Below, piece after piece: positions 41,169-64,000 of a stretch of DNA of 64,000 nt. Numbering within the stretch: position 1 is the first letter of the stretch; each line of letters opens with the position of its first letter. Below the pieces are notes generated by a model. It made no database searches and was not told the origin of the DNA. It was given only the letters and a program-made list of their open reading frames with translations. Where the stretch lies: positions 1 through 64,000 of the IMG/VR virus record IMGVR_UViG_3300031857_016701; one strand, written 5' to 3'. The position numbers were made by a program, and so were the translations under genes. Source of the stretch: a virus. Taxonomy: Duplodnaviria > Heunggongvirae > Uroviricota > Caudoviricetes.

Positions 41169-41198
41169 TTTATAAAATATCTACAATATTAAACTCAT

Positions 41199-41855: not shown

Positions 41856-42624
41856 AATGTCTTATCTCAAATTTAATACAACCATATATATTAAACCCAA
41901 GTTTTTTTGCATTTTCAGAAAAACTAACTCCTTCTAATTTACAAGGAATTACATTTCCACATAAGTCTGTGTATTCGTCATCTACAAATAAATATCTTAA
42001 TCCACTATCAAAAACTTTACGATTAATAAATGCTGCACATTCACATCTTTCTAATTCTATTATTTCTTCGTTTGGAAATATATGAGTAAGTTCATACAAT
42101 CTAGTTACTTTACCATTTAAATTTGTATAAGATGCACAATCATGATATCCATATGTGTTATGTGTATATAAAGGCATTACAATATCTTTATTAAGTGATA
42201 ATAAATATTCTATTGAATTTTCTTGAAAATTTTCTACATCTATATCTAACCACCACAAATAATCATTATTTTTTAAATAATTATTCACGATAAAATTTCT
42301 TAAAATAACTAAATTATTAATTCTTTGTTGATAATGTTCAATTTGATACCTACATTCATGTTTTAACAAAAATCCTAAATCTAATTTTAAAATTGTAATA
42401 TCTTTATATTCATGTATAGGTATTTTCTTACTTATAATTTCATTTAATATACTCCAAGTATCATCTTCACTGTCATTTTCTATAAAACATAACGATATAT
42501 TTTCTTTTGGGTATGATAAATTATTAAGTTTATTCAAAAAATTATCTAAAAATTTAGCTCCATTTTTAACTGGAGTACCTATTAATATATTTTTATTATT
42601 CATAATGCCCATCCTTTTGCCCAA
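41845..42624 (-). CDS. GT2-like glycosyltransferase
   Basis: IGTPVKNGAKFL ... ENDSEDDT (GT-A N-terminal motifs). Confidence 0.4.
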   Translation of the reverse strand: MGKRMGIMNNKNILIGTPVKNGAKFLDNFLNKLNNLSYPKENISLCFIENDSEDDTWSILNEIISKKIPIHEYKDITILKLDLGFLLKHECRYQIEHYQQRINNLVILRNFIVNNYLKNNDYLWWLDIDVENFQENSIEYLLSLNKDIVMPLYTHNTYGYHDCASYTNLNGKVTRLYELTHIFPNEEIIELERCECAAFINRKVFDSGLRYLFVDDEYTDLCGNVIPCKLEGVSFSENAKKLGFNIYGCIKFEIRHCDC

Positions 42625-43247
42625 TGATGTACTGAATATGATTCAGGTGAAGTTATATTAAAATCCTCATTTCTTCTTTCCATTTCATACCAAGAATATG
42701 GATAAAAATATTTAATATCATAAAATTTATATGTTGGATTATTTAAATATGGATTTAAAAATTGTGTAAAAAATTCAGGACCACTAATTTTCCATATTTC
42801 ACTACTTACTTTACCGTTATAAGTAAATTTTTTAATGTTTTCTAATACAGAATCAACATAAAAGCTAACAAGAGATTCATTGACCTTAGATCCCATAATA
42901 CCTATTGCAATTTCATTATTAGGTTGATAACCTGAAAAAAAGTTGTAATTGAGTATTTCATCTGGCATTCTTTTTAATGGTTCAGTGTCCACATCAACAT
43001 ATATTCCTCCAAATTTTTCTAATATTTTAAATCTAAGTAAATCTGCTTTTAATCCAATATTATAATCACCATAATAATATTGTTTAATATCACTACTTAA
43101 AATATCAGTTGATTCAACTAATTGATTATCCCAAAAAATAAAATTATAATCTGGATATAAAATTTTCCACTTTTTTAAAAAATTAATATAATCGGAAGGA
43201 AATGGTTTATCACCTATCCATATATGATGTATGAATTTTGGTATCAT
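42600..43247 (-). CDS. GT32-type (DXD sugar-binding region) glycosyltransferase
   Basis: IPKFIHHIWIGDKPFP ... GGIYVDVDTEP. Confidence 0.55.
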   Translation of the reverse strand: MIPKFIHHIWIGDKPFPSDYINFLKKWKILYPDYNFIFWDNQLVESTDILSSDIKQYYYGDYNIGLKADLLRFKILEKFGGIYVDVDTEPLKRMPDEILNYNFFSGYQPNNEIAIGIMGSKVNESLVSFYVDSVLENIKKFTYNGKVSSEIWKISGPEFFTQFLNPYLNNPTYKFYDIKYFYPYSWYEMERRNEDFNITSPESYSVHHWAKGWAL

Positions 43248-43930
43248 ATATATTTTGAATCAAGTGTTAATGAATCAAATGTAGTATCATCAAAATCATA
43301 TTTATCAGGATTTCTTTGTTTTAGCAAACTTACTTGTTCAACTAATGGAGGCATAAACACATAATGTTTAAGTATCTTTAGTGTTTTCTTTTGTATTTGT
43401 ATATCAACTGCTGCCCAAGCTTGATGATTAGTATCAAGTAAAACTGGAATACTTGATTTTTTAATCATATAAGCATGTGTACACATAGGTGCATGTGTAG
43501 TTGTAATAATGTTATTAGTTACTTTTAATTGATAATCTTCTGGAGGTAAACAACAATGCCCAACAAAAACATATTGCCAATCATCAGGAAGTTGTTTTTT
43601 AAATTCTAAAAATCTTTCATGAAAATTTTCACATAAAAATGCATCATCTTCTAAGATAAGAATTTCTTCATGATGTAAATGCCAAAGAGTTTGCCATAAC
43701 ATATAATGAGACAATAAACATCCAATTCTACCTTGTTTAATAAAATAGTCATCTCCGTCTGGATTATCATCTTTATATGGTATTGTAGTTTTCAATCCAA
43801 ACTTTGTACCATTAATTCCTTCAAAAAATTCAACATCTAATCCATGTTGTTTAAAATGTTGTTCTGCATACTCTTTTCTTTTAGGAGTATCTTTCAATGT
43901 TAAACAAAATATTTTTGGTAAATTATTCAT
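43244..43930 (-). CDS. GT25 (LPS beta-1,4-galactosyltransferase Lic2A/LgtB-like) glycosyltransferase
   Basis: IFCLTLKDTPKRKEYAEQHF ... GRIGCLLSHYMLWQ ... LILEDDAF. Confidence 0.6.
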   Translation of the reverse strand: MNNLPKIFCLTLKDTPKRKEYAEQHFKQHGLDVEFFEGINGTKFGLKTTIPYKDDNPDGDDYFIKQGRIGCLLSHYMLWQTLWHLHHEEILILEDDAFLCENFHERFLEFKKQLPDDWQYVFVGHCCLPPEDYQLKVTNNIITTTHAPMCTHAYMIKKSSIPVLLDTNHQAWAAVDIQIQKKTLKILKHYVFMPPLVEQVSLLKQRNPDKYDFDDTTFDSLTLDSKYI

Positions 43931-44654
43931 TTTTATATATGTCTGTCCAATTACTTCCCCATTTTAATATTATTTCATGTAAACCATCATTAGAATAATA
44001 ATCTTGATTTGCATGCATATGAGTTCTGCCTCCAAAATGATCTACTCTACTATTATATACAATTCCGTTTGTAATAGATGAATCTTTTTGTTTAATATAA
44101 TTTAAATACAAATCAAAATCTTTATCTTGATAATGTGCTTTTATATTTTCATCCCATTTATAATTTGATGATCTTTTAAGACAATAAAACCAAGCGGGTA
44201 TATGAACTCTATTAATAAATATTTTTTTATACGTTACATCAGTTCGATATACATCATACAATGGTGGTTCCCAATCAAATGATTTTGTAAACGGTGAAAC
44301 TACAAACAAGTTATTAATAATATCAAACCAATTAATTAAATTATAATACCAATCATGTTGAAACATTAAATCACTATTAGCATACATTACATATTCATTG
44401 TTACATAATTTAGCACCTTCATTATATAATTTACTTAAATTAAAATCAAAAGGCATATATACAAAATTTTGTTTTTTTGATTGTACATAATCTTTAAATC
44501 TTGAATGTGAGTCAGAATCTGAATTGTTTTCAATAATCCACAGTTTACATTCATCAGGAGTATTTTTAACAAATGAATCTATCATTTCTACTTGAAATTC
44601 TTCAATCTTTTCATTTCTTGTAGAGCACGGCATTATTATATCAGAATATTTCAT
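43923..44654 (-). CDS. GT2-like glycosyltransferase
   Basis: LWIIENNSDSDS. GT-A N-terminal pattern. Confidence 0.4.
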   Translation of the reverse strand: MKYSDIIMPCSTRNEKIEEFQVEMIDSFVKNTPDECKLWIIENNSDSDSHSRFKDYVQSKKQNFVYMPFDFNLSKLYNEGAKLCNNEYVMYANSDLMFQHDWYYNLINWFDIINNLFVVSPFTKSFDWEPPLYDVYRTDVTYKKIFINRVHIPAWFYCLKRSSNYKWDENIKAHYQDKDFDLYLNYIKQKDSSITNGIVYNSRVDHFGGRTHMHANQDYYSNDGLHEIILKWGSNWTDIYKNE

Positions 44655-44698
44655 GTTTTTTGTCTTTTAATGATAAACAAAATATTTTTGGTACCATA

Positions 44699-45526
44699 TT
44701 AAAAATGATATTTATTTCTAAAAAATAAATAATTTATATCAGAAAAAGAATCTGAATGATGGTATATTTCCGGATAATTTTTGTTTCTTCCAATTTTTAA
44801 AATTTTATATTTATTAAAATCAATTAAATTTAATAAATCATTGTGATTATCTTCACAAAAATCATGAAGTTCAATCCAAAGATTTGGAGTATAATCTTTT
44901 AATATTTTTTTTGTTCCGTTTAATACTTTTATTTCTTCTCCTTCAGTATCTATTTTTATAATAGAATTATCTGTAATATCAGAATAAAAATTATCTAAAC
45001 ATAAAGTCTTACAATCTTTAATTGGTTGATATAAATCATTATTAAATCTATAAAAGTCTTCTTTACTAAATGTTTGTATTCCATTTTTATTAGAAACAAA
45101 AGCATTATAAATTTCTACATTTTTAATATTATTTAATTTAATATTTGTTTTCAAAATATTATAATTATTAGTATCTGGTTCGAGTGAAATTACTTTTTTT
45201 GCGATTCTTGAAAAATTAAGAGTATAATGTCCATGATGAGCACCAACATCAATTATAGTATCTATATTATTATTTAAATCAACATTCAATGTTTTATACA
45301 TTTCAATCAAATATGCATTTATATCATTTTGATTTGAAATATCATTCCAATCAATTTTATTATAAAAATATAATATACCATATAATATTTCCAGAGAAAT
45401 ATAATCTCTATATCCTTCATAGTCTTGTTCTCCTACATCATACCATATTTTTCCTGTTCCATCATCAATAAAAAAATTAAATTTATTGTGTGGCAATCCA
45501 CATCTTGTTTTTATTATTTTATTCAT
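44699..45526 (-). CDS. FkbM-family methyltransferase (second copy)
   Basis: IIDVGAHHGHYTLNF. Confidence 0.5.
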   Translation of the reverse strand: MNKIIKTRCGLPHNKFNFFIDDGTGKIWYDVGEQDYEGYRDYISLEILYGILYFYNKIDWNDISNQNDINAYLIEMYKTLNVDLNNNIDTIIDVGAHHGHYTLNFSRIAKKVISLEPDTNNYNILKTNIKLNNIKNVEIYNAFVSNKNGIQTFSKEDFYRFNNDLYQPIKDCKTLCLDNFYSDITDNSIIKIDTEGEEIKVLNGTKKILKDYTPNLWIELHDFCEDNHNDLLNLIDFNKYKILKIGRNKNYPEIYHHSDSFSDINYLFFRNKYHF

Positions 45527-46718
45527 TTTTATATAAATACATATTTAGGTTATCATTTTCAATTGTCTTGATACAATTGTAATTTTTTATTTCTATAATA
45601 TCTTTTCTAAAAATTAATATATAATTTGAATCAATATAATTTATAATATCAACATCACAATCTTTATTTATAACCAACAAATCTGTTTTTTGTTTTATTA
45701 TATCACTAGTATTTAATAGTTTTATACTAATATTATAATTAAAAAGATAATTTAAATGATGACATATATCATGACAAAGATCAAATTTATCATCGTATGA
45801 TATTAATTCTTTAGGATTTAAATGTAAAAGTAAACGAGACACATAAGCTCTTTGTGTTTTATATTCAACAATATTAGTTATGTTTAGTTCTTTTAATTTT
45901 AAAATTTCATCTACAAATGGATATATATAATTTTCTTTGTTGTATAGATTCAAATCTTTTATTTTGTTTTTGCTATATTCGATTTCGAATTTATATAAAT
46001 CTACATCTTTTTGATTTATACAATAATTGATTGTATTTTCATGTATATCATTAGCACTTAAATTGTTTTCTTTCCATTTAAAAAGAAAATAATATAAATT
46101 TCTTTGTTTAAAATCAGAATAATAAGGAGCAATCAAAACTTCTCCTGTTCCTCTTCTATTTCCGATTACTTCAGTTTCTTCACAATTATTTATATAACTT
46201 ATAGATTTGTAACCGATACAATTGTGAGAAATAGTTGAATTTGCTTTTTTTCTTATCGTTTCTGTCAAGTCTGAATCTTCATGGTAACATGGCCATATAT
46301 TATCATCAAATAATCCAACACATTTAATCCACTCTTTTGATGCTATAAATGATGCCCAATGATTACACCATATTAAATGAATATTATTATTTTTTTCTTC
46401 CGTAAATTTATTAAAAATTGATTCTAATGATGTGTTTTTAATAAAATAATTATCATCACACATAAATAAAATGTCTTCGTTTTGATTTAACTTAATAATT
46501 TCATTAGTTCCTCTACATGTACCATAATTATAAGCATTTTTAATTATGGTAATAGGTATATCAATTTTTTCTTTTAGATGATATCCGATTCCATTATCAC
46601 TAATATAAATTTGTTTTGGCCATACATTTTGTATAATAATATCTTTAATTAGATCATCCAAATAATCATACCGATTATATGTTATAATTCCGATAATAAA
46701 ATTTTTTGTTACATTCAT
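45519..46718 (-). CDS. GT2-family glycosyltransferase
   Basis: IGIITYNRYDYLDDLI ... MCDDN. Confidence 0.5.
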   Translation of the reverse strand: MNVTKNFIIGIITYNRYDYLDDLIKDIIIQNVWPKQIYISDNGIGYHLKEKIDIPITIIKNAYNYGTCRGTNEIIKLNQNEDILFMCDDNYFIKNTSLESIFNKFTEEKNNNIHLIWCNHWASFIASKEWIKCVGLFDDNIWPCYHEDSDLTETIRKKANSTISHNCIGYKSISYINNCEETEVIGNRRGTGEVLIAPYYSDFKQRNLYYFLFKWKENNLSANDIHENTINYCINQKDVDLYKFEIEYSKNKIKDLNLYNKENYIYPFVDEILKLKELNITNIVEYKTQRAYVSRLLLHLNPKELISYDDKFDLCHDICHHLNYLFNYNISIKLLNTSDIIKQKTDLLVINKDCDVDIINYIDSNYILIFRKDIIEIKNYNCIKTIENDNLNMYLYKNE

Positions 46719-49216
46719 ATCTTTATAATTCCTGTCTTTTCATCATTTAATCCGAAGCTAACAACAAATTTACCATCTTTTTCAATTGCACCACATGGAA
46801 AAACTACTAACGGACTAATTTCATCCAAAATTCTTTCATCTGCTTCATTTCCATGTAAAATTGGTTCACTATCAATATGAACAATTTTAAATGGAGGAAT
46901 ACTTTCAAATTTGTAATATCCCATAAAGTATTGTCTTTTAGGAAATCTCCAAGGTAAACTACTATGGAAAAAATTGTGGTAATATCCATCTTTTAATATT
47001 GGATTACTTCCCATTCTACATTCACCAAAAATCCATTCTTTACTAATATCATGAAAATTTTTATATTCGGTTATTACCTTATTTGTTTTTAAATCTACTT
47101 CAATAAGAACATGTGGATTCATTCTATATACAACCATTAAATTTCCATTATATATAAAGAAAGTCCAATTTTTTTGATGATTTTTATTTTCATTTATACT
47201 ATTTCCATTACCATCATATTCTATATGAATATTATCAATGTGATTGAAATTTTTATCAAATACTAATATTTTTTGATGTATAAATTTTACTTTATTAAAT
47301 TGATAATTAGCACACCCAACATAATATTTATTATCATGAACTAATACTCTAGGATCTTCATATTGTTCATTATCAATTTCATCGATAATTTTTAAATTCA
47401 AATCTTTTATTATATTATAGTTTTCATCCAATTCATATAATTTTAAAGTATTTTTAAACTTTTTAAATCCTATTAATATAGACTCTCTCGTCATTAATAA
47501 TAATTTATTATCATAACCTTTAAAAATACAAGAGTTAAAATAAAAGTTTTTATTTGTATATGGTAAATCTACAATTTTTACATCATTCGATTGATTGAAA
47601 ACACTATCTTGTAGTTTGGATGATATATATCCATGTAAATTTTTTTCAATTATATTATAGATATATTTATCAATATGATTGATATCTTTAATAGAAAATG
47701 TTTTAAACGTATTATCAATATAATTCACTTTAATATTAAATAATTTAAATGATAATTCTCTTTCATCATCTAACTCTGGCTTTATTTTTTTAGGAACAAA
47801 ATATGGTTGAAAAGTTTCTATTTTGGAACCTTCAATTGTAACTTTATTAATTCCATTATAAACTATTTTTCTTTCACCATTTATTTCTATAAATGTTTCT
47901 TTATCAAGAGATTCAAATTCTAATTCAATTGACTTTATTGAAGAATGATATATATAAAATTCACTTGATTTACCCATCCATCTAAATGGTATTTTATTAT
48001 CATATTCTATATCATGGAATCCGTTTCCAATTGATATCTGATATCTTTCATAGAATGTTTCATTTTTTCCAAATAATGTACAATTTAACAATTTACTGGC
48101 GTGTTTTTTATCTGCTATAGCCCATTTATATGTGTCGTCTAATTTAAATTGGAAAAAAACACTTTCATTTTTATCTAATGAATTAAGTTTATAATCCACT
48201 AAACCATCATAATCTTTACCTAGATATTCCGTATGTCCACCATAACCAGTAATAATTACTTTTTTATCATTATTAAACGCATCAAATGCACCTAAACAAA
48301 ATCCTTCGGTCTTAGTTAAATGAAAATAACAATCTCCGATATCATGTAAAGATTTAATTTCGTCATAATTTAAATTATCTTTAATATAAATGATTGGTGC
48401 ATGATTATATCCACTCGTTACTTTTATTATTTCTTCTACACATTTATCTTGTTCTTCTTTAGAATAATTTAATTTAAATGTTTTTACTATTAAAAGTACA
48501 TTATCATCTGATGTAAAGGTATTACAATATGATTCAATTGTATTTAGTATTCCTTTTCTTTCAATTAATTGACCTATACAATAAAATTTATAAGAATTTT
48601 CTAAATTTACAATATCATCGGATTTACATAAAATCATACTCTTAGATAAAAGATGTTTTAATCCAGTTTTTTTGTAAGGATAATCTACATAAATGTGTGG
48701 TTCAACTATAATAGGTTTAGTTACTCCACTATTAATAAAACACTTTTTGTTCCATTCAGTGGGTACGCTTACAATATCAACTATACTAGCATTAATAGAA
48801 TCAACCCAAGATGGTAATAATTTTTCAAATTCCCATACCGTTCTACCAATAAGAGTTTTTCCTTCTAAATTGACATTAGGAGCATTTTTAATTACATTAG
48901 TCCAAATATCAGGGGTAGAATGTACAATAATTGTATTGTAATTAATATTAACTGATGTACATGAATTTAAATATTGATGAAATCTATCATTTTCATTAAC
49001 TTCATCACTGCAATTAAAGTATTGAGTTTTTACAGGTATCTTTTTACTAATGTAGTCGTAGATATATCCTTTAGCCGCATTAGCATATCCACTAGTACCA
49101 TTCTGACAAATATACAATATAGATTTATCTTTATATAAAAAAGTATTAGCCATTGTAACATTATTCTTTCTAAAGATATAACTATGTAGTAAATTAAATT
49201 TGTCAGTAGAAACCAT
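46715..49216 (-). CDS. two-domain glycan enzyme: N-terminal GT4-like glycosyltransferase fused to a C-terminal GH130/DUF377-like (beta-propeller glycoside phosphorylase/transferase-like) domain
   Basis: EGFCLGAFDAFNNDKKVIITGYGG (E-x7-E). C-terminal half ends VVFPCGAIEKDGKFVVSFGLND, resembling the GH130 C-terminus. Size 833 aa. Confidence 0.4.
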   Translation of the reverse strand: MVSTDKFNLLHSYIFRKNNVTMANTFLYKDKSILYICQNGTSGYANAAKGYIYDYISKKIPVKTQYFNCSDEVNENDRFHQYLNSCTSVNINYNTIIVHSTPDIWTNVIKNAPNVNLEGKTLIGRTVWEFEKLLPSWVDSINASIVDIVSVPTEWNKKCFINSGVTKPIIVEPHIYVDYPYKKTGLKHLLSKSMILCKSDDIVNLENSYKFYCIGQLIERKGILNTIESYCNTFTSDDNVLLIVKTFKLNYSKEEQDKCVEEIIKVTSGYNHAPIIYIKDNLNYDEIKSLHDIGDCYFHLTKTEGFCLGAFDAFNNDKKVIITGYGGHTEYLGKDYDGLVDYKLNSLDKNESVFFQFKLDDTYKWAIADKKHASKLLNCTLFGKNETFYERYQISIGNGFHDIEYDNKIPFRWMGKSSEFYIYHSSIKSIELEFESLDKETFIEINGERKIVYNGINKVTIEGSKIETFQPYFVPKKIKPELDDERELSFKLFNIKVNYIDNTFKTFSIKDINHIDKYIYNIIEKNLHGYISSKLQDSVFNQSNDVKIVDLPYTNKNFYFNSCIFKGYDNKLLLMTRESILIGFKKFKNTLKLYELDENYNIIKDLNLKIIDEIDNEQYEDPRVLVHDNKYYVGCANYQFNKVKFIHQKILVFDKNFNHIDNIHIEYDGNGNSINENKNHQKNWTFFIYNGNLMVVYRMNPHVLIEVDLKTNKVITEYKNFHDISKEWIFGECRMGSNPILKDGYYHNFFHSSLPWRFPKRQYFMGYYKFESIPPFKIVHIDSEPILHGNEADERILDEISPLVVFPCGAIEKDGKFVVSFGLNDEKTGIIKI

Positions 49217-55964: not shown

Positions 55965-56195
55965 ATGAAATATGATAGTATAACAACAATTAAAGTAAAT
56001 AAACAGTTATATGATTCATTTAAGATTGATAATATCAAGAGCAAGTTCAACCTACAAGATTTGGTAAGTCGTTCAATGTATTTGTATATGAACGACAAAG
56101 ATTTTAGAGATAGACTTTATAATTTAATATTGCCAGTATTAAGTGAAGCTTCACAACAAACCGTTTTAAACATTTCAGGATCTAAAAAAGTATGA
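55965..56195 (+). CDS. hypothetical protein (76 aa)
   Basis: ORF. Confidence 0.3.
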   Translation: MKYDSITTIKVNKQLYDSFKIDNIKSKFNLQDLVSRSMYLYMNDKDFRDRLYNLILPVLSEASQQTVLNISGSKKV

Positions 56196-56722
56196 GTAAA
56201 AAGAAAATTCTATTATTGTCTGATGATTTGCGTATGCATAGTGGTATTGCTACTATGTCCCGAGAATTGGTATTGGGTACTGTTCATCATTATGATTGGG
56301 TACAAATTGCAGGAGCAATTAAACATCCAGAAGCAAATAAGGTTGTTGATTTGAGTCAAGCAACAAGAGATATGGTTAAAATTCCAGATGCGTATGTTAA
56401 ATTATATCCTACTGATGGTTATGGTAGTGACCAGATGTTATTTGCTGTAATGCAAGCGGAAAAACCAGATGCAATCATGCATTTTACCGATCCTAGATTT
56501 TGGGGATGGTTGTACGCAATTGAAAAACAAGTTAGAGCTAAAGTACCACTAACATATCTTCATATTTGGGATGATCTACCATATCCAATGTGGAACAGAC
56601 CATTCTATCAGAGTTGTGATGCGTTGTTTGCTATTAGTAAACAGTCAAACAATATTGCTAAACATGTATTAGGTGCAGAAAACTGTTTCTCACTAGACGA
56701 AGTTAACAATCAACCAGTTTAA
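56192..56722 (+). CDS. GT4-family glycosyltransferase, N-terminal domain only (split gene or frameshift)
   Basis: GT-B N-domain-like sequence. Ends 7 nt before the C-domain ORF, which is in another frame. Confidence 0.45.
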   Translation: MSKKKILLLSDDLRMHSGIATMSRELVLGTVHHYDWVQIAGAIKHPEANKVVDLSQATRDMVKIPDAYVKLYPTDGYGSDQMLFAVMQAEKPDAIMHFTDPRFWGWLYAIEKQVRAKVPLTYLHIWDDLPYPMWNRPFYQSCDALFAISKQSNNIAKHVLGAENCFSLDEVNNQPV

Positions 56723-56729
56723 TAAAGTT

Positions 56730-57716
56730 ATGCCATTTAAAAATAAAAAACATTTGTTACATTTAGTTCCACACGGTATCAATAGTGATGTATTTAGACC
56801 ACTAAGTTCCACCGAAAAACTTGTTAAAGATAAGAAGAAACAATTATTCGGTGATAAACAATATGACTTCGTATTGTTTTACAATAGTCGTAATGTACAA
56901 CGCAAAAAGACAAGTAATGCAGTATTAGCTTTTAGAGCTTTTTGTGATAATCTTACAACCGAACAAGCAGCTAAGTGTGTATTTGTATTACATACCGAAA
57001 AAGTACAAGATGCAGGTACTGATCTGCCAGAAGTAATTAAAGCATTATGTCCTAACTATGACGTAGTATTTGTTGAAAACAAGATTAGTCCAGAAGAAAT
57101 GTGTGCAATGTATAATATTGCAGATGCAACAATTTTAACTAGCTCCAATGAAGGGTTTGGATTAAGCATTGCAGAATCAATTATGTGCGGTACTCCAGTA
57201 ATTGTTAATGTTACTGGTGGATTACAAGATCAGATCGGTCAAGTAGATGATAACGGTAAACCAGTTGAATTTGATTTGAATTTTGGTACCAATAGTGTTG
57301 GCAAATATAGAAATCACGGTGTATGGGCTAAACCTATTTGGCCATGTGTAAAAACAATTCAAGGAAGTGTACCAACACCATATATCTTTGATGATGTTTG
57401 TACATGGGAAGAATCCGCAGAAGCAATTATGTATTGGTATTTAATGTCAAATGACCAACGTGAAAAGTGTGGTTTGGAAGGTCGTCGTTGGGCAATGAAT
57501 GAAGGTGGCATCAATGCAAAGAATATGTGTGATCAATTTATTAAAGCAATGGATTATACTATTAACAACTTTGTTCCAGAACAAGGATTTGATTTGTTTA
57601 CTTTAAATGATCATGTTGGTAATTATCAACCACATAATAGTATTGGTTTAGAAATTCCAAAGATTGATATTGACAAATTGAAGAATGACATTAATACTAC
57701 AGTAGCTAAACTATGA
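56730..57716 (+). CDS. GT4-family glycosyltransferase, C-terminal domain
   Basis: HLVPHGINSDVF hinge motif. SSNEGFGLSIAESIMCGTPVIV (E-x7-E). Confidence 0.55.
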   Translation: MPFKNKKHLLHLVPHGINSDVFRPLSSTEKLVKDKKKQLFGDKQYDFVLFYNSRNVQRKKTSNAVLAFRAFCDNLTTEQAAKCVFVLHTEKVQDAGTDLPEVIKALCPNYDVVFVENKISPEEMCAMYNIADATILTSSNEGFGLSIAESIMCGTPVIVNVTGGLQDQIGQVDDNGKPVEFDLNFGTNSVGKYRNHGVWAKPIWPCVKTIQGSVPTPYIFDDVCTWEESAEAIMYWYLMSNDQREKCGLEGRRWAMNEGGINAKNMCDQFIKAMDYTINNFVPEQGFDLFTLNDHVGNYQPHNSIGLEIPKIDIDKLKNDINTTVAKL

Positions 57717-58397: not shown

Positions 58398-59705
58398 ATG
58401 AGCAAACCATTATGTGTAATTCAAGGTCCAGTCTTCAATAGAAGCGGATATGGTGATTTAGCAACCGATTTAGCAAAGAGTATTGTTAGATACGGTAAGT
58501 ATGATGTAAAAATCAATCCTACTAGATGGGGTGGATGTCCATCTAAAGCAACAGTTGAAGATTTATCATCTGATGAGGATAGACAATTAGCAACAATGTT
58601 TCTTACTCAACAATTAAATAAACAACCCGATTTGTTCATTCAAATTAGTATCCCAAATGAATTTCAACCAGTAGGCAAATATAATGTCGGAATTACTGCT
58701 GGTATTGAAACTACAATGGCATCTGGACAATTCGTTGAAGGATTGAATCGTATGAACATGAATATTGTTACCAGTAATCATGTCAAGAAAGTATTTGAAT
58801 CTGCTCAATATCAAAAACAATTTGAGGATGGTCGAAAAGAACTTCTTAAGAGTGAAAAACCAATGGAAGTATGTTTTTGGGGTGCAGATACAACAGTTTA
58901 TAAGAAAACCGATGAAAAGGTTGAATCAATTGAAAGTGTACTTTCTTCTATTCCAGAAAAGTTTGCATTCTTATTCGTAGGACAATGGACTCATAGAAGT
59001 TTATACAATGATCGTAAAGACATTGGTAATCTTATTAAGACATTTAGTAATGCATTTAAGAACAAATCTCCAGAAAATAGACCATGTTTATTATTAAAGA
59101 CAAGCGGAGTTAATTTCTCCGTAGTAGATCGTGATGAAATCTTAGGAAGAATCAAACAAATCCAAGCAGAAGTTGGTGATAATTGTCCAAATGTATATTT
59201 ACTTCACGGTGAATTAACTCCTACGGAAATTAACGGACTATTGAATCATGAAAAAGTAAAAGTACACGTTAGTTTTACTCACGGTGAAGGATTTGGACAT
59301 CCATTGTTGTTGGCTTCATTGAGTGGTAAACCAGTATTATCATCAAATTGGAGTGGACATTTAGATTTCTTGAATCCAAAGTATACATCTTTCTTTGAAG
59401 GTACATTGAAACAAATTGATCCTGCATCTGCAAATGATTGGTTGATTAAAGAATCTAGTTGGTTTTATGTTGCTTATGGATTGGCTGAAGATAAGTTTAA
59501 ACAATATTATCATAGTTACACCCAATCTTTTACAGATAAAGCAGAACAACTTCGTCTTGAAAATGTTGAAAAGTTTAGCCTTCAAGCAATGGATACAAAA
59601 TTGTGGGGAATTTTGGACAAATATGTTCCAGAATTTGCTGTGGAAAAGAAGATTGTACTACCTAAATTGAAGAAGATCGAACTTCCAAAATTAAATAATG
59701 TTTGA
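58398..59705 (+). CDS. GT4-like glycosyltransferase (435 aa)
   Basis: FTHGEGFGHPLLLASLSGKPVL (E-x7-E type motif). Confidence 0.5.
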   Translation: MSKPLCVIQGPVFNRSGYGDLATDLAKSIVRYGKYDVKINPTRWGGCPSKATVEDLSSDEDRQLATMFLTQQLNKQPDLFIQISIPNEFQPVGKYNVGITAGIETTMASGQFVEGLNRMNMNIVTSNHVKKVFESAQYQKQFEDGRKELLKSEKPMEVCFWGADTTVYKKTDEKVESIESVLSSIPEKFAFLFVGQWTHRSLYNDRKDIGNLIKTFSNAFKNKSPENRPCLLLKTSGVNFSVVDRDEILGRIKQIQAEVGDNCPNVYLLHGELTPTEINGLLNHEKVKVHVSFTHGEGFGHPLLLASLSGKPVLSSNWSGHLDFLNPKYTSFFEGTLKQIDPASANDWLIKESSWFYVAYGLAEDKFKQYYHSYTQSFTDKAEQLRLENVEKFSLQAMDTKLWGILDKYVPEFAVEKKIVLPKLKKIELPKLNNV

Positions 59706-60379
59706 TGATTATGTCAAAACCATTCATATCATATTTAGTAACTACTAAAAATACAGGATTTGAACTTCAACTTCTGTTAGAAAGACTATACAAATATGGT
59801 CAAAATAATGAATGTATTATTTTAGATGATTATAGTGATAATCCAGATACGTTACAAATATTAGATAACGTATCTGGTAATAATTTCTTTAAAGTTCATA
59901 AACACAAACTGGATAGAAATTATAGTGAACACAAAAATTATGGTAAAAGTCAATGTCAAGGAGATTATATTTTTCAAATTGATGACGACGAATTGCCATC
60001 TGAAATATTGTTAGATTCATTAAAAGAATTAATTGAATTAAATAGTGACGTTGATTTGTTTTGGATTCCTCGTATAAATGATTTTAAAGGAGTTAATATT
60101 GAAAACTCTAAACAGTGGGGATGGCGATTAACATCCTATGAAGATAGATTAATCGTTAATTGGCCAGATCCACAAGGTAGATTATTTAAAAATGTACATT
60201 ACATTGAATGGAAACGTAGACTACATGAAAAAGTAGAAGGTGCAAAAACATATGTACATTTACCGTCAGTATATGAATTAGCTTTACATCATAATAAAAC
60301 AATTCAAAAACAAATTGAAACTAATGTAAAATATAATAAATTATTTACGGAAGAAGAAAATAAAGGATTTAAAGTATGA
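59702..60379 (+). CDS. GT2-family glycosyltransferase
   Basis: IILDDYSDNPDT and QIDDDE (DxD motifs). Confidence 0.5.
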   Translation: MMIMSKPFISYLVTTKNTGFELQLLLERLYKYGQNNECIILDDYSDNPDTLQILDNVSGNNFFKVHKHKLDRNYSEHKNYGKSQCQGDYIFQIDDDELPSEILLDSLKELIELNSDVDLFWIPRINDFKGVNIENSKQWGWRLTSYEDRLIVNWPDPQGRLFKNVHYIEWKRRLHEKVEGAKTYVHLPSVYELALHHNKTIQKQIETNVKYNKLFTEEENKGFKV

Positions 60380-60425: not shown

Positions 60426-62294
60426 ATGAATATAGTAATTCCACTTGGAGGAAAAGGAGAACGATTTAAAAATGAAGATTATAATTTACCAAAAGTATTA
60501 ACTCCTGTTTTTGGAAAAAAGATTATATCATGGGTAATAGAATCTTTTAAATTAAATAAAAATGATTGTTTTACTATAATTTATAATAATCATTTGGATC
60601 AATATAATTTTGAAGACGTTTTAAAAAAAGAATATAATTTTAACTTTAATTTCATTAAGTTACCGTTTCAAACATCAGGTCCAGTTGAAACTATTCTATA
60701 TGGTCTATCAAAGTTAGATAATTCAATTTTAGATGAACCACTTATTATTCATGATGGCGATTCATTCATTAAAAATAATATAGTACAAAATATAAACAGC
60801 AAATCAAATACAATATTATATACAATTGATACAAATCCAAATCCTATATTCAGTTATATTCAATTGGATGAACATAATTATGTAACCGATATAAAAGAAA
60901 AATCTAAAATTAGCAATTTTGCTAATATTGGATGTTATACATTTAAAAATTCTCATATCTTTAAAAAATATGCATCTCAATGTGATCAATCATTGAACGA
61001 AATTTATATTTCTCATGTATATAAAAAAATATTAGATAATAAATTAGAAAATGTTATTGGTTATGAAGTAGCAAAAAATGAATATGTATGTTTGGGCACA
61101 CCACTACAAGTAATCGAATTTTGTAGAAACAATACAATTAATTCGTCATCAAAGTTTTGTTTTGATCTTGATAATACATTGGTTACGTATCCAAAAGTAA
61201 ATGGTGATTATACTACAGTCGAACCAATTCAAAGAAATATTGATTTTTTAAATCATCTAAAATCACAAGGACATTATGTTATAATTCATACTGCACGTAG
61301 AATGAAAACGCATAGTGGAAATGTATCTAAGGTAATAAAAGATATTGGAAAAATTACATTCGATACATTAGATAAATTCAACATTCAATATGATGAATTA
61401 TGTTTCGGTAAACCTCACGCAGACTTTTATATTGATGATTTAGCAGTAAATTCATTTTCAAATTTAGAAAAATCAACAGGATTTTATATCAATACTATTA
61501 CTCCAAGAAGTTTTAATACAATTAAAACGACAGAGAATTCTATTATTAAAACATCTGAAAAAGATTTATCGGGGGAAATTTATTATTATAAAAATATACC
61601 AAAAGAAATTTCAGATTTATATCCAAACTTAATTAATTGCGATAATTCTTATTTAGAAATTGAAAAAATTAACGGTACAGTAATGTCTATAATGTATTCA
61701 CATAAAGAATTTACATCTAAACATTTAGATATGTTGTTTAATGTGTTGGATAGAATTCATTCGGTAAATATTGATGATATAAATAATATTAATATTTACG
61801 AAAATTATTCATCAAAATTAAAAAATAGATATGATAACTATAATTATTCCAGATTCAAAAATTCAAAATTGATTTATGACAAAATTCTAAAAAATTTAAA
61901 TGAATATGAAATAAATGGAAAAGGATATAAATCAGTAATTCACGGTGACTTTGTATTTTCTAATATCATTCTAACTGATACTTCAATTAAATTAATTGAT
62001 ATGAGAGGAAAAATTGCAAATAAGGCTACTATATTAGGTGATAAATTTTACGATTATGCAAAGTTATATCAGTCTTTAATAGGTTATGATTTTATATTAA
62101 ATAATAAATCAATTTCATTTTCATATATAGATACATATATCAAATCATTTGAATCAAAATTCGTTTCAATGTATGATGAAGAACAACTTAAATATTTAAA
62201 GAGTTTAACTGCTAGTTTGTTGTTTACATTAATTCCTCTTCATAACGATCATAAATGTGAAGATTACTATAATCTAATAAATTACCTAATTTAA
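60426..62294 (+). CDS. trifunctional fusion: sugar-phosphate nucleotidyltransferase + HAD-family phosphatase + APH/choline-kinase-fold sugar kinase
   Basis: N-terminus MNIVIPLGGKGERF...LPKVLTPVFGKKII (G-x-G-x-R). Middle FDLDNTL...IHTAR...GKP...YIDD (HAD motifs I-IV). C-terminus IHGDFVFSNIIL...LIDMRG (Brenner HGDxxxxN plus D-x-x-G). Confidence 0.55.
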   Translation: MNIVIPLGGKGERFKNEDYNLPKVLTPVFGKKIISWVIESFKLNKNDCFTIIYNNHLDQYNFEDVLKKEYNFNFNFIKLPFQTSGPVETILYGLSKLDNSILDEPLIIHDGDSFIKNNIVQNINSKSNTILYTIDTNPNPIFSYIQLDEHNYVTDIKEKSKISNFANIGCYTFKNSHIFKKYASQCDQSLNEIYISHVYKKILDNKLENVIGYEVAKNEYVCLGTPLQVIEFCRNNTINSSSKFCFDLDNTLVTYPKVNGDYTTVEPIQRNIDFLNHLKSQGHYVIIHTARRMKTHSGNVSKVIKDIGKITFDTLDKFNIQYDELCFGKPHADFYIDDLAVNSFSNLEKSTGFYINTITPRSFNTIKTTENSIIKTSEKDLSGEIYYYKNIPKEISDLYPNLINCDNSYLEIEKINGTVMSIMYSHKEFTSKHLDMLFNVLDRIHSVNIDDINNINIYENYSSKLKNRYDNYNYSRFKNSKLIYDKILKNLNEYEINGKGYKSVIHGDFVFSNIILTDTSIKLIDMRGKIANKATILGDKFYDYAKLYQSLIGYDFILNNKSISFSYIDTYIKSFESKFVSMYDEEQLKYLKSLTASLLFTLIPLHNDHKCEDYYNLINYLI

Positions 62295-62295: not shown

Positions 62296-63342
62296 ATGTC
62301 ATATAAAATTATAAATTTTGATATTCCATATCATACCGCTGGTAAAAACAGAGAATTCTGTATAGAATACAATAACATTTATATTATCAATAAACAAGGA
62401 GATGACTGTATTATTGATGCGTTTCATAATGGTAAAAAAGTAATAGGTGGTATTGATAAACACCATCAAATGATAGGAAACAGATCGATCATTTACGATA
62501 GTAATGTAACAAACACAAACGAGTCATATGATGTATACGAATCAGACCCTTCATTTTTATTATACGATGCTGCAGGATTAAATTATATTCATTTTTTCTT
62601 TTGTTTCTTTGGTAAATGTTATTACTATGACGAATTGACTAAAGACAACAAAATTAAATTGTATATACCTGAACAATTATATAGAGATACAGGCAAAAGT
62701 AATTTTATCAAACAGTGGTTATCATTGTATTATGAAAAAATTGAAGTTAATATTTTAAAAACAAATATTAGATATAAATTTAATAGTTTAATATTACCAA
62801 ATGCATTTTATAACTTCCCACAACCTTACGGATATGATGCAATATACCCTATGATCCGAAAAGTAACGGATAAAATACCTGTAAATGAATCTTTAAAAAA
62901 TAAAGGAGTCTACATTTCTAGACAAGATACTATAAAAAGAGGGTGGTATCATAATAGAGTTCTAGAAAATGAATTGGAACTAATAGAAAAAATTAAAAAT
63001 AAATTAAACTATGACATCATAGAATTGATGGATTATGACATGGCAGATAAAATTAAACTTTTTAAATCATATAAAACAATAGTTCAACAATCTAGTGCAT
63101 CAGTTATAGGAATATTATTTTCAAATAAAACAACAAATCATATAATTTTAGAACATCCTAAGATGAATTGGTGGTTGACACCAAAATGTAAAGAATTTTC
63201 AAACTTAACAAAATCAACATTAGTTACAGTAGAAGGTTTTGGTGAATTAGTACAATCAGAAAAACAAGTGGACGATAACAACTATCCGTGGAAATTAATT
63301 GAATTAGATTATTTAATTGACAATATAGCTTCTGTATCATAA
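62296..63342 (+). CDS. GT61/DUF563-like glycosyltransferase
   Basis: HFFFCFFGKCYYY ... RVLENELELIEKI ... KIKLFKSYKTIVQQSSASVIGILFSNKTTNHIILE pattern typical of DUF563. Confidence 0.4.
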   Translation: MSYKIINFDIPYHTAGKNREFCIEYNNIYIINKQGDDCIIDAFHNGKKVIGGIDKHHQMIGNRSIIYDSNVTNTNESYDVYESDPSFLLYDAAGLNYIHFFFCFFGKCYYYDELTKDNKIKLYIPEQLYRDTGKSNFIKQWLSLYYEKIEVNILKTNIRYKFNSLILPNAFYNFPQPYGYDAIYPMIRKVTDKIPVNESLKNKGVYISRQDTIKRGWYHNRVLENELELIEKIKNKLNYDIIELMDYDMADKIKLFKSYKTIVQQSSASVIGILFSNKTTNHIILEHPKMNWWLTPKCKEFSNLTKSTLVTVEGFGELVQSEKQVDDNNYPWKLIELDYLIDNIASVS

Positions 63343-63351: not shown

Positions 63352-64000
63352 ATGAATAATATACTTGAATCAGTAAAATCTTATATTTTAGAAAAACAAT
63401 CAAATAAAAAATGGGAAGCAGGAAAAGATTGGGTCCAATACGCAGGACCATTCTTTGATGATAAAGAATATGTAGCAGCTATTCAATCATTATTAAATGA
63501 ATGGTTAGTCTTAGGACAAGATGCAATTACATTCGAAACAAATTTTCCCAAATTATTTAACAAAGAATATGGAATTCTTACAAATAGCGGTAGTAGTTCT
63601 AATTTATTGATGATGTTGGCAATGACATCAAAAAGATTATACAATCTACCAAAAGGAACCAAAGTAATTACTCCTATTGCAGGATTTCCTACTACTTTAA
63701 ATCCTATTTTTCAAGTGGGATTTGAACCAGTATTCGTTGATATTGATTTGGGTACACTTAATCTCAATTTAGATCAAGTCGAAGAAGCATCAAAGAAAGG
63801 TGCAAAAATTATTACATTTGCACATGTTTTGGGAAACCCACCAAATATGAATCGTTTAATGGAAATCATTAAACAATACAATTTAATTCTTCTAGAAGAC
63901 TGTTGTGATGCGCTTGGATCGACATATGATGGTAAACCATTAGGAAGTTTTGGTGAATTATCAAGTTGTAGTTTTTATCCAGCACATCATATGACGATGG
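63352..64000 (+). CDS. DegT/ColD/E1-family PLP-dependent sugar 3-dehydratase/aminotransferase (3' end truncated by the window)
   Basis: LTNSGSSSNLLMMLA, EDCCDALGSTYDGKPLG, SFYPAHH (His in place of the PLP Lys, as in ColD/E1 dehydratases). Confidence 0.55.
   Translation, partial: MNNILESVKSYILEKQSNKKWEAGKDWVQYAGPFFDDKEYVAAIQSLLNEWLVLGQDAITFETNFPKLFNKEYGILTNSGSSSNLLMMLAMTSKRLYNLPKGTKVITPIAGFPTTLNPIFQVGFEPVFVDIDLGTLNLNLDQVEEASKKGAKIITFAHVLGNPPNMNRLMEIIKQYNLILLEDCCDALGSTYDGKPLGSFGELSSCSFYPAHHMTM

Follow-up and report, generated by a model that had tools for sequence, protein, structure and literature searches.

A phage protein that joins nucleotidyltransferase, HAD phosphatase and APH-fold kinase domains: a candidate one-polypeptide route to a nucleotide sugar

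The DNA analysed here is a stretch of 64,000 nucleotides, called the window below, and its source is a marine or freshwater T4-like phage. A giant-virus origin was considered and rejected; against it stand a full-length T4-type DNA polymerase, a clamp loader, DNA and RNA ligases and a cell-wall hydrolase. A megablast search with the window found no near-identical deposited phage, the sole match being 50 bases of a dUTPase. Towards its end the window carries the co-directional genes listed in Table 1, where a gene for a three-domain protein stands among GT61, GT2 and sugar-modifying genes. The phage glycan locus expected in the original prediction is what the neighbourhood shows.

Table 1. Genes and domains of the co-directional block (positions in the window)
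Feature	Position	Strand	Details and basis
GT4-type glycosyltransferase as two ORFs, start of the co-directional block	56192..57716	+	Pfam; 56192-56722, N-terminal domain; 56730-57716, C-terminal domain
435-aa protein with a weak GT-B (Glycos_transf_1) match, same operon	58398..59705	+	Pfam E 9.9e-5, below cut-off
GT2-family glycosyltransferase, directly upstream of the three-domain gene, same operon	59702..60379	+	225 aa; Pfam PF00535 E 1.2e-11
Three-domain protein, complete ORF	60426..62294	+	622 aa; ATG start, TAA stop, stop codon included
Domain 1, sugar-1-phosphate nucleotidyltransferase, RmlA/GlmU-NTD/4evw type	60426..61133	+	residues 1-236; Pfam, PDB, invariant residues
Domain 2, minimal HAD phosphatase, 1xpj/EcbF-BcbF/AfhF type	61149..61481	+	residues 242-352; TIGR01689, 1xpj, 9iqw
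Domain 3, APH/choline-kinase-fold small-molecule kinase, AfhE C-terminal-domain family	61497..62291	+	residues 358-622; BLASTP, PHROGs, model
GT61-family glycosyltransferase	62296..63342	+	348 aa; Pfam PF04577 E 2e-11; junction sequence
DegT/DnrJ/EryC1-type sugar aminotransferase, 5' part, runs off the window	63352..64000	+	Pfam PF01041 E 9e-44

The ATG of the GT61 gene lies one base past the stop codon of the three-domain gene, and the GT61 enzyme is the probable user of what the fused protein makes. Of 82 viral loci, 20, the Fadolivirus locus included, have a GT61 gene directly downstream in the same orientation, and every viral locus that has one inside 5 kb (20/20) has it immediately downstream of the fusion gene. 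The GT2 gene is kept just upstream in 21 viral loci with a median gap of 43 bp, the gene for the 435-aa GT-B-like protein is conserved in phage relatives, and the split of the GT4 gene into two ORFs is repeated in relatives. At the position where the aminotransferase gene runs off our window, loci L003 and L005 have a full-length DegT/DnrJ/EryC1-type gene. No terminator-like site was found on the + strand between 54 kb and about 63.43 kb, and a promoter scan found promoter-like sites to be rarer than in shuffled sequence.

Judged by its sequence, the ORF encodes a single intact protein with three catalytically complete domains in the order nucleotidyltransferase (NT), HAD, kinase. All motifs on which the original prediction was built are in place: GGKGERF at residues 8-14, DLDNTL at 247-252, IHTAR at 287-291, GKP at 328-330, IDD at 336-338, HGDFVFSN at 506-513 and IDMRG at 524-528. 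All three regions match the families that had been named for them, the linkers are short and the catalytic residues are intact; in an alignment of 35 sequences of 46-91% identity, the residues of the catalytic motifs are invariant or nearly so. The AF2 model of the whole protein is confident (pLDDT 89.5, pTM 0.79), and a BFVD fold search found a full-length structural twin of it in an Indivirus protein (TM 0.89/0.87).

The fusion itself is upheld. Of 86 independent viral loci, 85 have this architecture in one ORF, with lengths of 608-1030 aa, and it is common to more than 120 database proteins, including those of Fadolivirus, Tupanvirus, Satyrvirus and Indivirus; the best 120 database matches cover 96-100% of the query, one 420-aa fragment excepted. 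This conservation rules out an artefact of assembly or a frameshift. It also corrects the original picture, for the fusion is not rare. Many giant viruses and a T4-like phage clade have it, and public databases carry it under uninformative names, family members being labelled merely "nucleotidyl transferase", "hypothetical protein" or "capsule biosynthesis phosphatase".

The NT domain matches the Pfam family NTP_transferase (PF00483) over residues 7-203 with 37.4 bits against a gathering cut-off of 21.2 (E 2.8e-9), and PDB entry 4evw both by sequence (E 1.6e-10) and by fold (Foldseek E 1e-16, target-normalised TM 0.80). ST0452 and GlmU structures rank directly behind 4evw in Foldseek, RmlA and HddC are also among the matches, and the Rossmann-like nucleotidyltransferase fold is present. 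The motif reads G8-G9-x-G11-x-R13...P22-K23, together with D110/D112 and E158-K159; G9, G11, R13, P22, K23, D110, D112, E158 and K159 are invariant in the 35 sequences. In NCBIfam, Arch_glmU, rmlA_long, GlmU and MurU match, all of them below cut-off (MurU with 22.7 bits against 250), and the best of these matches are archaeal GlmU/ST0452-type enzymes. The equivalog models for RmlA, GlmU, MurU, GalU and HddC stay far below their cut-offs and point to no particular NTP or sugar. The domain groups with the separate 240-aa 4evw-type NT of bacterial operons (E about 1e-40). BLASTP found no alignment between it and the N-terminal domain of the AfhE-type protein of Mosigvirus, and on sequence grounds it is not an orthologue of the AfhE N-terminal domain.

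All four motifs of the HAD domain are complete: motif I is D247-x-D249-x-T251, motif II is T289 (plus R291 and R292), motif III is K329 and motif IV is D337-D338. D247, D249, T251, T289, K329, D337 and D338 are invariant or nearly so among the 35 sequences. The TIGR01689 model reaches 64.8 bits (E 7e-18, model positions 3-111 of 126) against a curated cut-off of 162; by sequence, the domain is a clear relative of EcbF-BcbF, yet no member of that family by the NCBI rule. The HAD-IIIA model TIGR01662 gives 21.1 bits against a cut-off of 44.6. PDB matches are 1xpj (E 2.7e-12) and 9iqw (E 1.3e-7). The 9iqw chain is an orthologue of the AfhF-type protein of Mosigvirus, with which our HAD domain shares 31% identity (E 3e-11).

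The motifs of the kinase domain are K375, E384, H506-G-D508-x4-N513, D525-x-R527-G528 and G538-D-x2-Y542-D543-x2-K546. No variation is seen at H506, D508, N513, D525 and E384; K375 occurs in all 22 bacterial sequences and in 12 of the 19 fused viral ones that were sampled. Pfam APH (PF01636) misses its gathering score on this domain (14 bits against 23.2, E 0.043) and NCBIfam APH_3p matches weakly (E 1.6e-3); 32 of 43 family members match Pfam APH at E <= 0.1, the best at 7e-9. A model of the domain, for which the alignment was built from sub-sequences of the proteins found in the homologue search, has the bilobal kinase fold (pLDDT 93.8, pTM 0.92). Foldseek places it with APH(2''), LicA, ethanolamine kinases and Mak at probability 1.00 and TM of about 0.55-0.67, for example APH(2'')-IVa with E 1e-7 and 3dxq with TMq 0.67 (probability 1.00). 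The sequence evidence is more specific than a shared APH fold and places the domain in the family of the AfhE C-terminal domain: BLASTP aligns it with a 561-aa AfhE-type protein of Mosigvirus at 26% identity over 223 aa (E 3e-13), an HMM of the fused family finds that protein with E 3e-26, and PHROGs 24015, 4098 and 21938 match at 6e-19 to 3e-13. Conserved residues outside the catalytic set, including the basic R361, K464, R468, R527 and K546, are common to the fused viral, the bacterial and the Mosigvirus proteins. With these five basic residues conserved, an anionic phosphosugar would fit as the substrate of the kinase.

In bacteria, homologues of the three activities form a conserved operon of three adjacent genes in O-antigen/EPS loci. 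The operon encodes an NT'-kinase protein of about 540-620 aa, a HAD protein of about 120 aa and an NT of about 240 aa, and its family includes 4evw and 1xpj of V. cholerae and EcbF/BcbF (TIGR01689) of P. multocida. It has homologues of all three of our domains and shares the glycan-locus context, but its genes are separate and in another order, and the kinase protein has an extra NT-like domain. It is accompanied by GT4, GT2, Wzy and Wzx-type flippases, where the fused phage gene has GT61; the neighbours enriched around it are generic polysaccharide genes. Besides this operon, HAD-NT, NT-KIN and NT-HAD-KIN fusions occur. The bacterial operon, the partial fusions and the full fusions in viral loci are evidence of the Rosetta-stone kind for a joint action of the three activities.

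Further domains are joined to the set in some relatives. A WecB domain (non-hydrolysing UDP-GlcNAc 2-epimerase; Pfam E 2.5e-78, TIGR00236 266 bits against a cut-off of 210) is fused to NT-HAD-KIN in the giant-virus homologues L104 and L109, which are about 1030 aa long. Two relatives, those of cyanophage S-SKS1 and of a Saprospiraceae MAG, have a genuine RibB domain, either fused or adjacent. These WecB and RibB fusions point to substrates other than pentofuranose-5-P. A search of the window and of the sequence flanking about 165 loci turned up no SIS, RibB or WecB domain for the window clade.

The closest characterised system known to us is the Afh pathway. Its route is given in PMC13326640, a secondary account citing He et al. 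2026 (Nat Chem Biol), as Araf5P to Araf-1,5-P2 to Araf1P to UDP-Araf. The same account, which also summarises Mahler et al. 2025 (Cell Host Microbe), describes AfhE as an Ara5P 1-kinase plus UDP-Ara pyrophosphorylase, and AfhF as a Mg2+-dependent phosphatase that converts Araf-1,5-P2 to Araf1P; the module serves DNA arabinosylation in RB69-like phages and adjoins their DNA polymerase gene. Our protein has in common with the Afh systems of RB69-like Mosigvirus, HY126 and DLP3 phages a homologous APH-fold kinase, a HAD phosphatase of the homologous 1xpj/9iqw type, the set of three activities, a viral origin and proximity to the DNA polymerase gene. The identity to the AfhE C-terminal domain and to AfhF is low, 26-31%. 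Afh consists of a two-domain NT'-kinase and a separate HAD protein, whereas the fused protein is one chain, with an NT of the 4evw-like sub-type that bacteria encode separately. Also unlike Afh, it has no arabinose-5-P isomerase, 5-hydroxy-dCMP synthase or DNA arabinosyltransferase nearby, and its partner is GT61 in a glycan locus. By this comparison, the fusion would most likely be a new fused variant of the recently characterised Afh pathway. Its chemistry is less novel than originally assumed, since it has a characterised precedent in split genes.

We infer from these relationships a reaction order, a sugar, a nucleotide and an acceptor. First, the C-terminal kinase would phosphorylate the anomeric hydroxyl of a terminally phosphorylated sugar to give a sugar-1,5-bisphosphate, the preferred substrate being a pentofuranose-5-phosphate, where homology speaks for D-arabinose-5-P and availability for D-ribose-5-P. 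The central HAD domain would then strip the terminal phosphate to leave the sugar-1-phosphate, and the N-terminal domain would join this to an NTP (UTP by analogy) to give an NDP-sugar. Finally, the translationally coupled GT61 would use the NDP-sugar as donor in a glycan made by the surrounding phage glycosylation genes. The pair of kinase and phosphatase would act as an irreversible stand-in for a phosphomutase. That one self-contained protein relocates phosphate at the expense of ATP and activates a sugar phosphate of central metabolism with a nucleotide seems to us about an even bet.

Such an order is known from the heptose pathways, HldE (or HldA/HldC) with GmhB and HddA-GmhB-HddC, which have the identical logic of C1 phosphorylation, dephosphorylation by a HAD enzyme and nucleotidylylation. 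Among the three analogies offered by the original prediction this one has fared best, the kinase domain being a specific homologue of the AfhE C-terminal domain and the HAD domain one of AfhF. HldE is, like our protein, a kinase-nucleotidyltransferase fusion. The resemblance is one of logic only: our HAD domain falls short of the HAD-IIIA type of GmhB, the heptose kinase has a PfkB or GHMP fold and is non-homologous to an APH-fold kinase, the transferase of HldE is cytidylyltransferase-like (Pfam CTP_transf_like) and ours is RmlA/GlmU-type, and the heptose-7-P substrate comes from the isomerase GmhA. An anomeric sugar kinase and an NDP-sugar pyrophosphorylase also share one polypeptide in the bifunctional L-fucokinase/GDP-fucose pyrophosphorylase (FKP) and related salvage fusions, but there the kinase has the GHMP fold, a phosphatase domain is lacking and the substrate is a free sugar. 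If the proposed mechanism holds, a sugar phosphate of central metabolism would become a glycosyl donor in one polypeptide, irreversibly and without a mutase, and the virus would control a glycan precursor independently of its host. The newly described Afh chemistry would then reach beyond DNA hypermodification into glycan synthesis.

As to the sugar, we favour a pentofuranose-5-P by analogy with Afh. A more far-reaching suggestion is that the enzyme makes UDP-D-arabinofuranose or UDP-D-ribofuranose from an intermediate of the pentose phosphate pathway, and that aquatic T4-like phages and giant viruses place furanose pentoses on their virions. The viruses in question would be the aquatic T4-like phage clade and many giant viruses, namely Klosneuvirinae, Tupanvirus, Fadolivirus and one with a CroV-sized genome, acting via GT61 and other transferases. 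In its full form we regard this as rather unlikely. According to the abstract of 10.1101/2025.07.18.665579, GT61 enzymes of plants decorate xylan with side chains of arabinofuranose and xylose, both pentoses. Arabinose-5-P isomerase is absent from the 64-kb window (tblastn and phmmer with the Mosigvirus KpsF as query), and none was found within 8-10 kb of the target, less on short contigs, in about 165 environmental loci; for this reason arabinose specifically is weakened. As far as we are aware, protist hosts of giant viruses would not be expected to supply arabinose-5-P, and we know of no UDP-D-arabinofuranose or UDP-D-ribofuranose from such hosts. If the suggestion is true, viruses would have a mutase-independent route of their own to a viral glycan of a new class, and viruses of bacteria and of eukaryotes would have it in common through horizontal transfer.

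Other sugars can be considered. The enzyme could bypass an N-acetylhexosamine mutase, turning GlcNAc-6-P (or another hexose-6-P) into the 1,6-bisphosphate, the 1-phosphate and then a UDP-sugar; GT61 would use this UDP-sugar, or in some giant viruses the fused WecB would first epimerise it to UDP-ManNAc. Hexosamine-6-phosphates are present in bacterial and eukaryotic hosts, which would explain the missing dedicated isomerase, and the animal GT61 members EOGT and POMGNT2 use UDP-GlcNAc. The archaeal GlmU/ST0452-type matches of the NT domain and the place of ST0452 and GlmU in the Foldseek ranking would also agree, but the NT scores are far under the curated cut-offs of the GlmU-type families. 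The WecB fusion is seen in only 2 of 86 viral loci and may simply join two branches of one glycan pathway. Among the homologues of the kinase and HAD domains, the only ones with a biochemical anchor use a pentose-5-P, according to PMC13326640. We regard a hexosamine as unlikely.

A different order of steps, that of MupP-AmgK-MurU, would avoid a bisphosphate: the HAD domain would release the free sugar, the kinase would make the sugar-1-P and the NT would make the NDP-sugar. The MurNAc-recycling route MupP-AmgK-MurU and NahK-type anomeric kinases resemble our protein in that a HAD phosphatase, a sugar kinase of the APH fold and a small nucleotidyltransferase of RmlA-like type serve one route to a UDP-sugar; the difference is that the proteins are separate and that the phosphatase acts before the kinase, which takes the free sugar, and the transferase. 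The APH-fold anomeric kinases NahK and AmgK, and also Mak, which is among the fold matches of our kinase, use unphosphorylated sugars, an observation that counts against a bisphosphate route. The five basic residues conserved in the kinase family would rather suit a phosphorylated substrate. PMC13326640 can be quoted for either order. Its Table 1 annotates the RB69 and DLP3 proteins as 'Dephosphorylates Araf5p to Ara' and 'Phosphorylates Ara to Araf1p', but its text, from in-vitro work on phage HY126, calls AfhE an arabinose-5-phosphate kinase and gives the bisphosphate route, with AfhF acting on Araf-1,5-P2. On this evidence, dephosphorylation as the first step appears improbable.

The original prediction also drew on LicA-LicC, and of its analogies this one is the weakest. 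A CDP-linked head group, as in CDP-ribitol or CDP-glycerol, would be made for phosphodiester decoration, from an alcohol, a polyol or a four-carbon unit derived from ribulose-5-P as the substrate of the kinase. Choline kinase LicA and ethanolamine kinases are among the fold matches, IspD and TarI-type cytidylyltransferases match the NT weakly, and the N-terminal domain of AfhE-type proteins has its best match in LicC (PDB 1jyk). Yet the HAD domain, invariant in the family, would have no role in LicA-LicC logic, the coupled gene encodes a Leloir-type GT61 glycosyltransferase and no phosphotransferase, and the NT matches sugar-1-P nucleotidyltransferases much better than cytidylyltransferases. 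The RibB domains of the two relatives would supply 3,4-dihydroxy-2-butanone-4-P, but the RibB-linked kinase of S-SKS1 has E in place of both R468 and D555, which are otherwise conserved, and may be a diverged sub-type. We consider head-group activation very unlikely.

That the NDP-sugar goes onto modified pyrimidines in phage DNA and not onto a glycan, as suggested by the homologous Afh module of RB69-like phages, by a co-directional block that starts about 2 kb from PolB and holds a dUTPase/Dcd-like gene, and by the match of its GT4 to the 'GT4-conflict' family, we find scarcely credible, given that RB69-type 5-hydroxy-dCMP synthase and DNA arabinosyltransferases were not found in the 64-kb window, which is part of a genome, that the ThyA homologue of the window retains the dUMP-specific signature, that the partners GT61, GT2 and sugar-modifying enzymes are typical of glycan synthesis, and that the nearest non-phage relatives lie beside GT14/GT61 of giant viruses or in bacterial O-antigen/EPS loci.

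Whatever the sugar is, the family is large, with hundreds of members in giant-virus and phage metagenomes, and many O-antigen/EPS loci of bacteria have it in split form. Once its sugar is assigned, these members would all be annotated together, an unrecognised component of the surface glycans of giant viruses and phages would be predicted, and a compact one-enzyme tool would be at hand for the chemo-enzymatic synthesis of NDP-sugars. In giant viruses the sole recurrent neighbour of the fusion gene is a 252-aa protein without a Pfam or NCBIfam match, and relatives there adjoin GT14/GT61 genes. The contexts examined, in phages, giant viruses and bacterial O-antigen/EPS loci, are all glycan loci. 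In a neighbour-joining tree, which is coarse, as it has no support values and noisy phage and giant-virus tags, the clade of the window is distinct from a large giant-virus radiation.

The original prediction of a nucleotidyltransferase (NT), a HAD phosphatase and an APH-type kinase in one protein is borne out. All motifs that it named lie in one ORF where it had placed them, and all three parts have kept their catalytic residues. In an alignment of 35 homologues (46-91% identity), in which conservation was scored, G9, G11, R13, P22, K23, D110, D112, E158 and K159 of the NT part are invariant or nearly so, as are D247, D249, T251, T289, K329, D337 and D338 of the HAD part and E384, H506, G507, D508, N513, D525, R527 and G528 of the kinase. 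The start codon has AT-rich surroundings, with no obvious Shine-Dalgarno sequence upstream.

Coordinates of the three-domain gene, its domains and other features of the window and of related loci
Feature	Position	Strand	Remarks
Three-domain gene	60426-62294	+	single ORF, 622 aa, ATG start, TAA stop
NT domain	residues 1-236		Pfam NTP_transferase and 4evw match
HAD phosphatase domain	residues 242-352		minimal HAD, related to TIGR01689
Kinase domain	residues 358-622		APH fold; weak profile match for window sequence
GT4-type glycosyltransferase in two ORFs	56192-57716	+	176-aa N-terminal and 328-aa C-terminal domain
Glycosylation island	36357-49216	-	13 kb, 21-25% GC
833-aa protein	46715-49216	-	GT1-type region 205-339, GH130-like region 568-831
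NAD-salvage/ribose-phosphate module	10064-13964	+	NUDIX 10064-11020, NAMPT 11098-12495, PRPP synthetase 13002-13964
ThyA homologue	16674-17816	+	380 aa, with large insertions that E. coli ThyA lacks
Homing-endonuclease-type GIY-YIG/NUMOD3 gene	21247-22023	-
Homing-endonuclease-type HNH gene	22429-23070	+	near the GIY-YIG/NUMOD3 gene
676-aa ORF	29399-31429	+	no Pfam or PHROG match
Four-domain WecB-NT-HAD-kinase proteins, ~1030 aa	L104 8813-11896; L109 8807-11899		giant-virus MAG contigs
Genuine RibB (DHBP synthase) linked to the module	L002 5001-7733; L083 328-3195		S-SKS1; Saprospiraceae MAG

Each region matches the family proposed for it. The NT domain scores 37.4 bits against Pfam NTP_transferase (curated cut-off 21.2). 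Its nearest solved chain is 4evw, an NDP-sugar pyrophosphorylase of Vibrio cholerae, both by sequence search (E 1.6e-10) and by Foldseek (E 1e-16, target-normalised TM 0.80), where ST0452, GlmU, RmlA and HddC follow in that order. The HAD domain matches TIGR01689 (EcbF-BcbF "capsule biosynthesis phosphatase") at E 7e-18, with a score of 64.8 bits that lies below the model cut-off of 162 bits, and the solved chains 1xpj (E 2.7e-12) and 9iqw (E 1.3e-7). The kinase region alone gives a faint profile signal (APH_3p E 1.6e-3; Pfam APH E 0.04); Pfam APH is matched by 32 of the 43 members of its family (best E 7e-9), and the alignment between the profile of the family and APH(3') spans the catalytic loop. 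Its AlphaFold model (pLDDT 93.8, pTM 0.92) matches APH(2''), the choline kinase LicA, ethanolamine kinases and the maltokinase Mak with probability 1.00 and TM of about 0.55-0.67. The full-length model is also confident (pLDDT 89.5, pTM 0.79). Over its whole length it can be superposed on the BFVD model of the Indivirus homologue, which was predicted independently (TM 0.89/0.87); this agreement suggests that the three domains are packed in a compact, fixed arrangement, not as beads on a string.

The fusion is present in databases and is not rare. A protein search with the three-domain protein found 1967 relatives; the best 120 of these stem from numerous separate assemblies, are 616-649 aa long and align over 96-100% of the query with 45-95% identity, with a 420-aa fragment as the sole exception. 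In IMG/VR, 323 stretches match. It had been considered that separate genes might have been joined by misassembly. Such an artefact is ruled out, since, of the 86 viral loci examined, 85 have the three domains in a single ORF (608-1030 aa), and the fusion recurs across many independent assemblies. Named viruses that have it are Fadolivirus, two Tupanviruses, Satyrvirus and Indivirus, and among the loci compared only viral contigs and a small number of marine MAG or SAG contigs carry it in complete form. Databases label these proteins only as "nucleotidyl transferase", "hypothetical protein" or JGI's "capsule biosynthesis phosphatase", and a literature search for the fusion returned no paper describing such a protein. 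Assigning its function would give a large family its annotation all at once.

Related modules are known from phages in which they are split. When deposited phages are searched by tblastn, over 100 T-even phages show similarity to the kinase region in a gene that is labelled "glmU" or "hypothetical". In a Mosigvirus, a relative of RB69, the polymerase neighbours are a KpsF arabinose-5-P isomerase, a 561-aa protein in which an NT-like domain (NT') precedes a kinase, and a 128-aa protein. The window kinase resembles the C-terminal half of the 561-aa protein (26% identity over 223 aa, E 3e-13), with which it has the motifs RSFN, VIHGDxxFSN, IDxRG and GxxYDxAK in common. The window HAD resembles the 128-aa protein (31% identity, E 3e-11), an orthologue of 9iqw (E 2.4e-86). 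These are proteins of the AfhE and AfhF type, from the phage route to UDP-arabinofuranose. In the available text of PMC13326640 (citing He et al. 2026, Mahler et al. 2025), AfhF of HY126 is a Mg2+-dependent phosphatase that converts arabinofuranose-1,5-bisphosphate to the 1-phosphate. Compared with this split pathway, characterised in 2025-26, the window version is fully fused and its domain order is permuted. Judged by its sequence, the three-domain protein is a new fused and permuted variant, with a predicted function, of a recently characterised pathway. The fusion is less surprising than the original prediction held, because its chemistry has precedent and fusion is common.

RefSeq phage records and PHROGs call AfhF-type HADs 'phosphoheptose isomerase' (Mosigvirus L001 5050-5436, Synechococcus phage S-SKS1 L002 7377-7733, phrog_1238). 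This name is apparently an error that has been propagated, since the proteins carry HAD motifs and match 9iqw/1xpj.

In bacteria we compared 80 loci from genomes and MAGs (Planctomycetota, Bacteroidota, Verrucomicrobiota, Chloroflexota, CPR and others). Whereas the window has a single chain, a conserved operon here carries the three activities on separate genes, namely an NT'-kinase of ~540-620 aa, a HAD of ~120 aa and an NT of ~240 aa; HAD-NT or NT-kinase fusions are occasional. The counterpart of the window NT is the separate NT (E ~1e-40), not the NT' that precedes the kinase. Neighbouring genes encode GT4, GT2, Wzy, Wzx-type flippase, AsnB-like and carbamoyltransferase proteins, and the operons are part of O-antigen/EPS loci. 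That the same three modules are repeatedly fused and permuted is strong evidence that they act in one pathway. The bacterial operons (L014-L087) appear to hold two NT-like domains (e.g. L034 7272-10136): nearly all have the separate 240-aa NT, and at its N-terminus the kinase protein has a weaker NT-like region, picked up in about 13 loci by HMM and in L034 by NCBIfam.

The following chemistry can be suggested. The kinase domain would convert a sugar ω-phosphate to the 1,ω-bisphosphate, the HAD domain would then strip the ω-phosphate to leave the sugar-1-phosphate, and the NT domain would turn this into an NDP-sugar to be consumed by the GT61 encoded downstream. Whatever the sugar, we consider this heptose-like order probable, and of the three analogies originally offered the heptose type fits best. 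Non-catalytic, family-specific kinase residues are conserved across fused viral, bacterial and Mosigvirus proteins; five of them are basic (R361, K464, R468, R527, K546) and may bind a phosphorylated substrate.

Which sugar enters is less certain. A pentose-5-phosphate has about an even chance, and D-arabinose specifically takes well under half of that. The same chemistry acting on hexosamine-6-P is unlikely; our confidence in the heptose-like order is the sum of that in the pentose and hexosamine readings. Several observations speak against a firm choice. SIS isomerases are absent from the 64-kb window and from the flanks of ~165 loci, and giant-virus hosts are unlikely to supply arabinose-5-P. 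Two giant-virus proteins bear a genuine WecB domain (non-hydrolysing UDP-GlcNAc 2-epimerase) N-terminal to the three domains, with 266 bits in L104 (cut-off 210) and by sequence similarity in L109. RibB is fused to the NT domain in S-SKS1, whose kinase has diverged at R468 and D555, and lies directly upstream of the kinase gene in the Saprospiraceae MAG. The substrate of RibB, ribulose-5-P, is also that of the arabinose-5-P isomerase of RB69-like phages. Rivals to the heptose-like order are the salvage order of MupP-AmgK-MurU (sugar-6-P to sugar to sugar-1-P to UDP-sugar) and head-group activation of the LicA-LicC type, both poorer fits.

As to the product's destination, the GT61 gene has its ATG one base past the stop codon of the three-domain gene. 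Of 82 viral loci, 20 have a GT61 on the same strand, 0-39 bp downstream of the three-domain gene, and no viral locus with a GT61 within 5 kb has it anywhere else. The 20 loci are mostly phage clades and the Fadolivirus type; most giant-virus loci have no coupled GT61. In L152, a 617-kb giant-virus genome, the three-domain gene adjoins a GT14-type transferase and an NDP-sugar dehydratase. Animal GT61 enzymes use UDP-GlcNAc. Those of plants, according to the available text of 10.1101/2025.07.18.665579, add arabinofuranose and xylose side chains. In Fadolivirus (L007 20650-21884), a gene of HldE architecture (PfkB + CTP_transf_like) lies ~9 kb from the three-domain gene; the virus may therefore hold both classical and APH-type kinase-transferase systems.

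DNA glycosylation as in RB69 is disfavoured: a 5-hydroxy-dCMP synthase homologue was not found in the 64-kb window, the ThyA homologue retains dUMP-type signatures (catalytic Cys in LPACH, dUMP-specificity Asn in PYNIA), and the partners of the three-domain gene are all glycan enzymes. In the fused variant, the Afh-type pathway would serve glycan synthesis instead of DNA modification; T4-like phages and giant viruses share this variant.

The window itself is phage. A giant-virus origin is excluded by its full-length T4-type DNA polymerase (phrog_262, E 4e-178), clamp loader, ATP-dependent DNA ligase, RNA ligase and cell-wall hydrolase; NAMPT and ThyA are also encoded. No close relative was found in the deposited phage collection. 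The co-directional block holding the three-domain gene begins ~2 kb from the polymerase gene and contains the two-ORF GT4, a dUTPase/Dcd-like gene, a weak GT-B match, GT2, the three-domain gene, GT61 and a DegT-type aminotransferase that extends past the window edge. Within the block, + strand terminator-like sites are absent before ~63.43 kb. The 328-aa ORF of the GT4 has its match in the 'GT4-conflict' family; since the relatives L003-L006 show the split too, a sequencing error does not account for it. Given its NAD-salvage/PRPP synthetase module, the phage also draws on ribose-5-phosphate.

The 13-kb island encodes at least a dozen glycosyltransferases (among them GT1, Fringe/GT31-like, GT10-like, two GT25, Anp1/GT62-like, GT32 (Gly_transf_sug) and two GT2), two FkbM methyltransferases and one epimerase; a GDP-mannose dehydratase gene lies elsewhere in the window. 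The GH130-like mannoside-phosphorylase region of the 833-aa protein scores below the Pfam cut-off. Several of the island's families are typically eukaryotic, and the island directly adjoins the clamp-loader gene of this T4-like phage.
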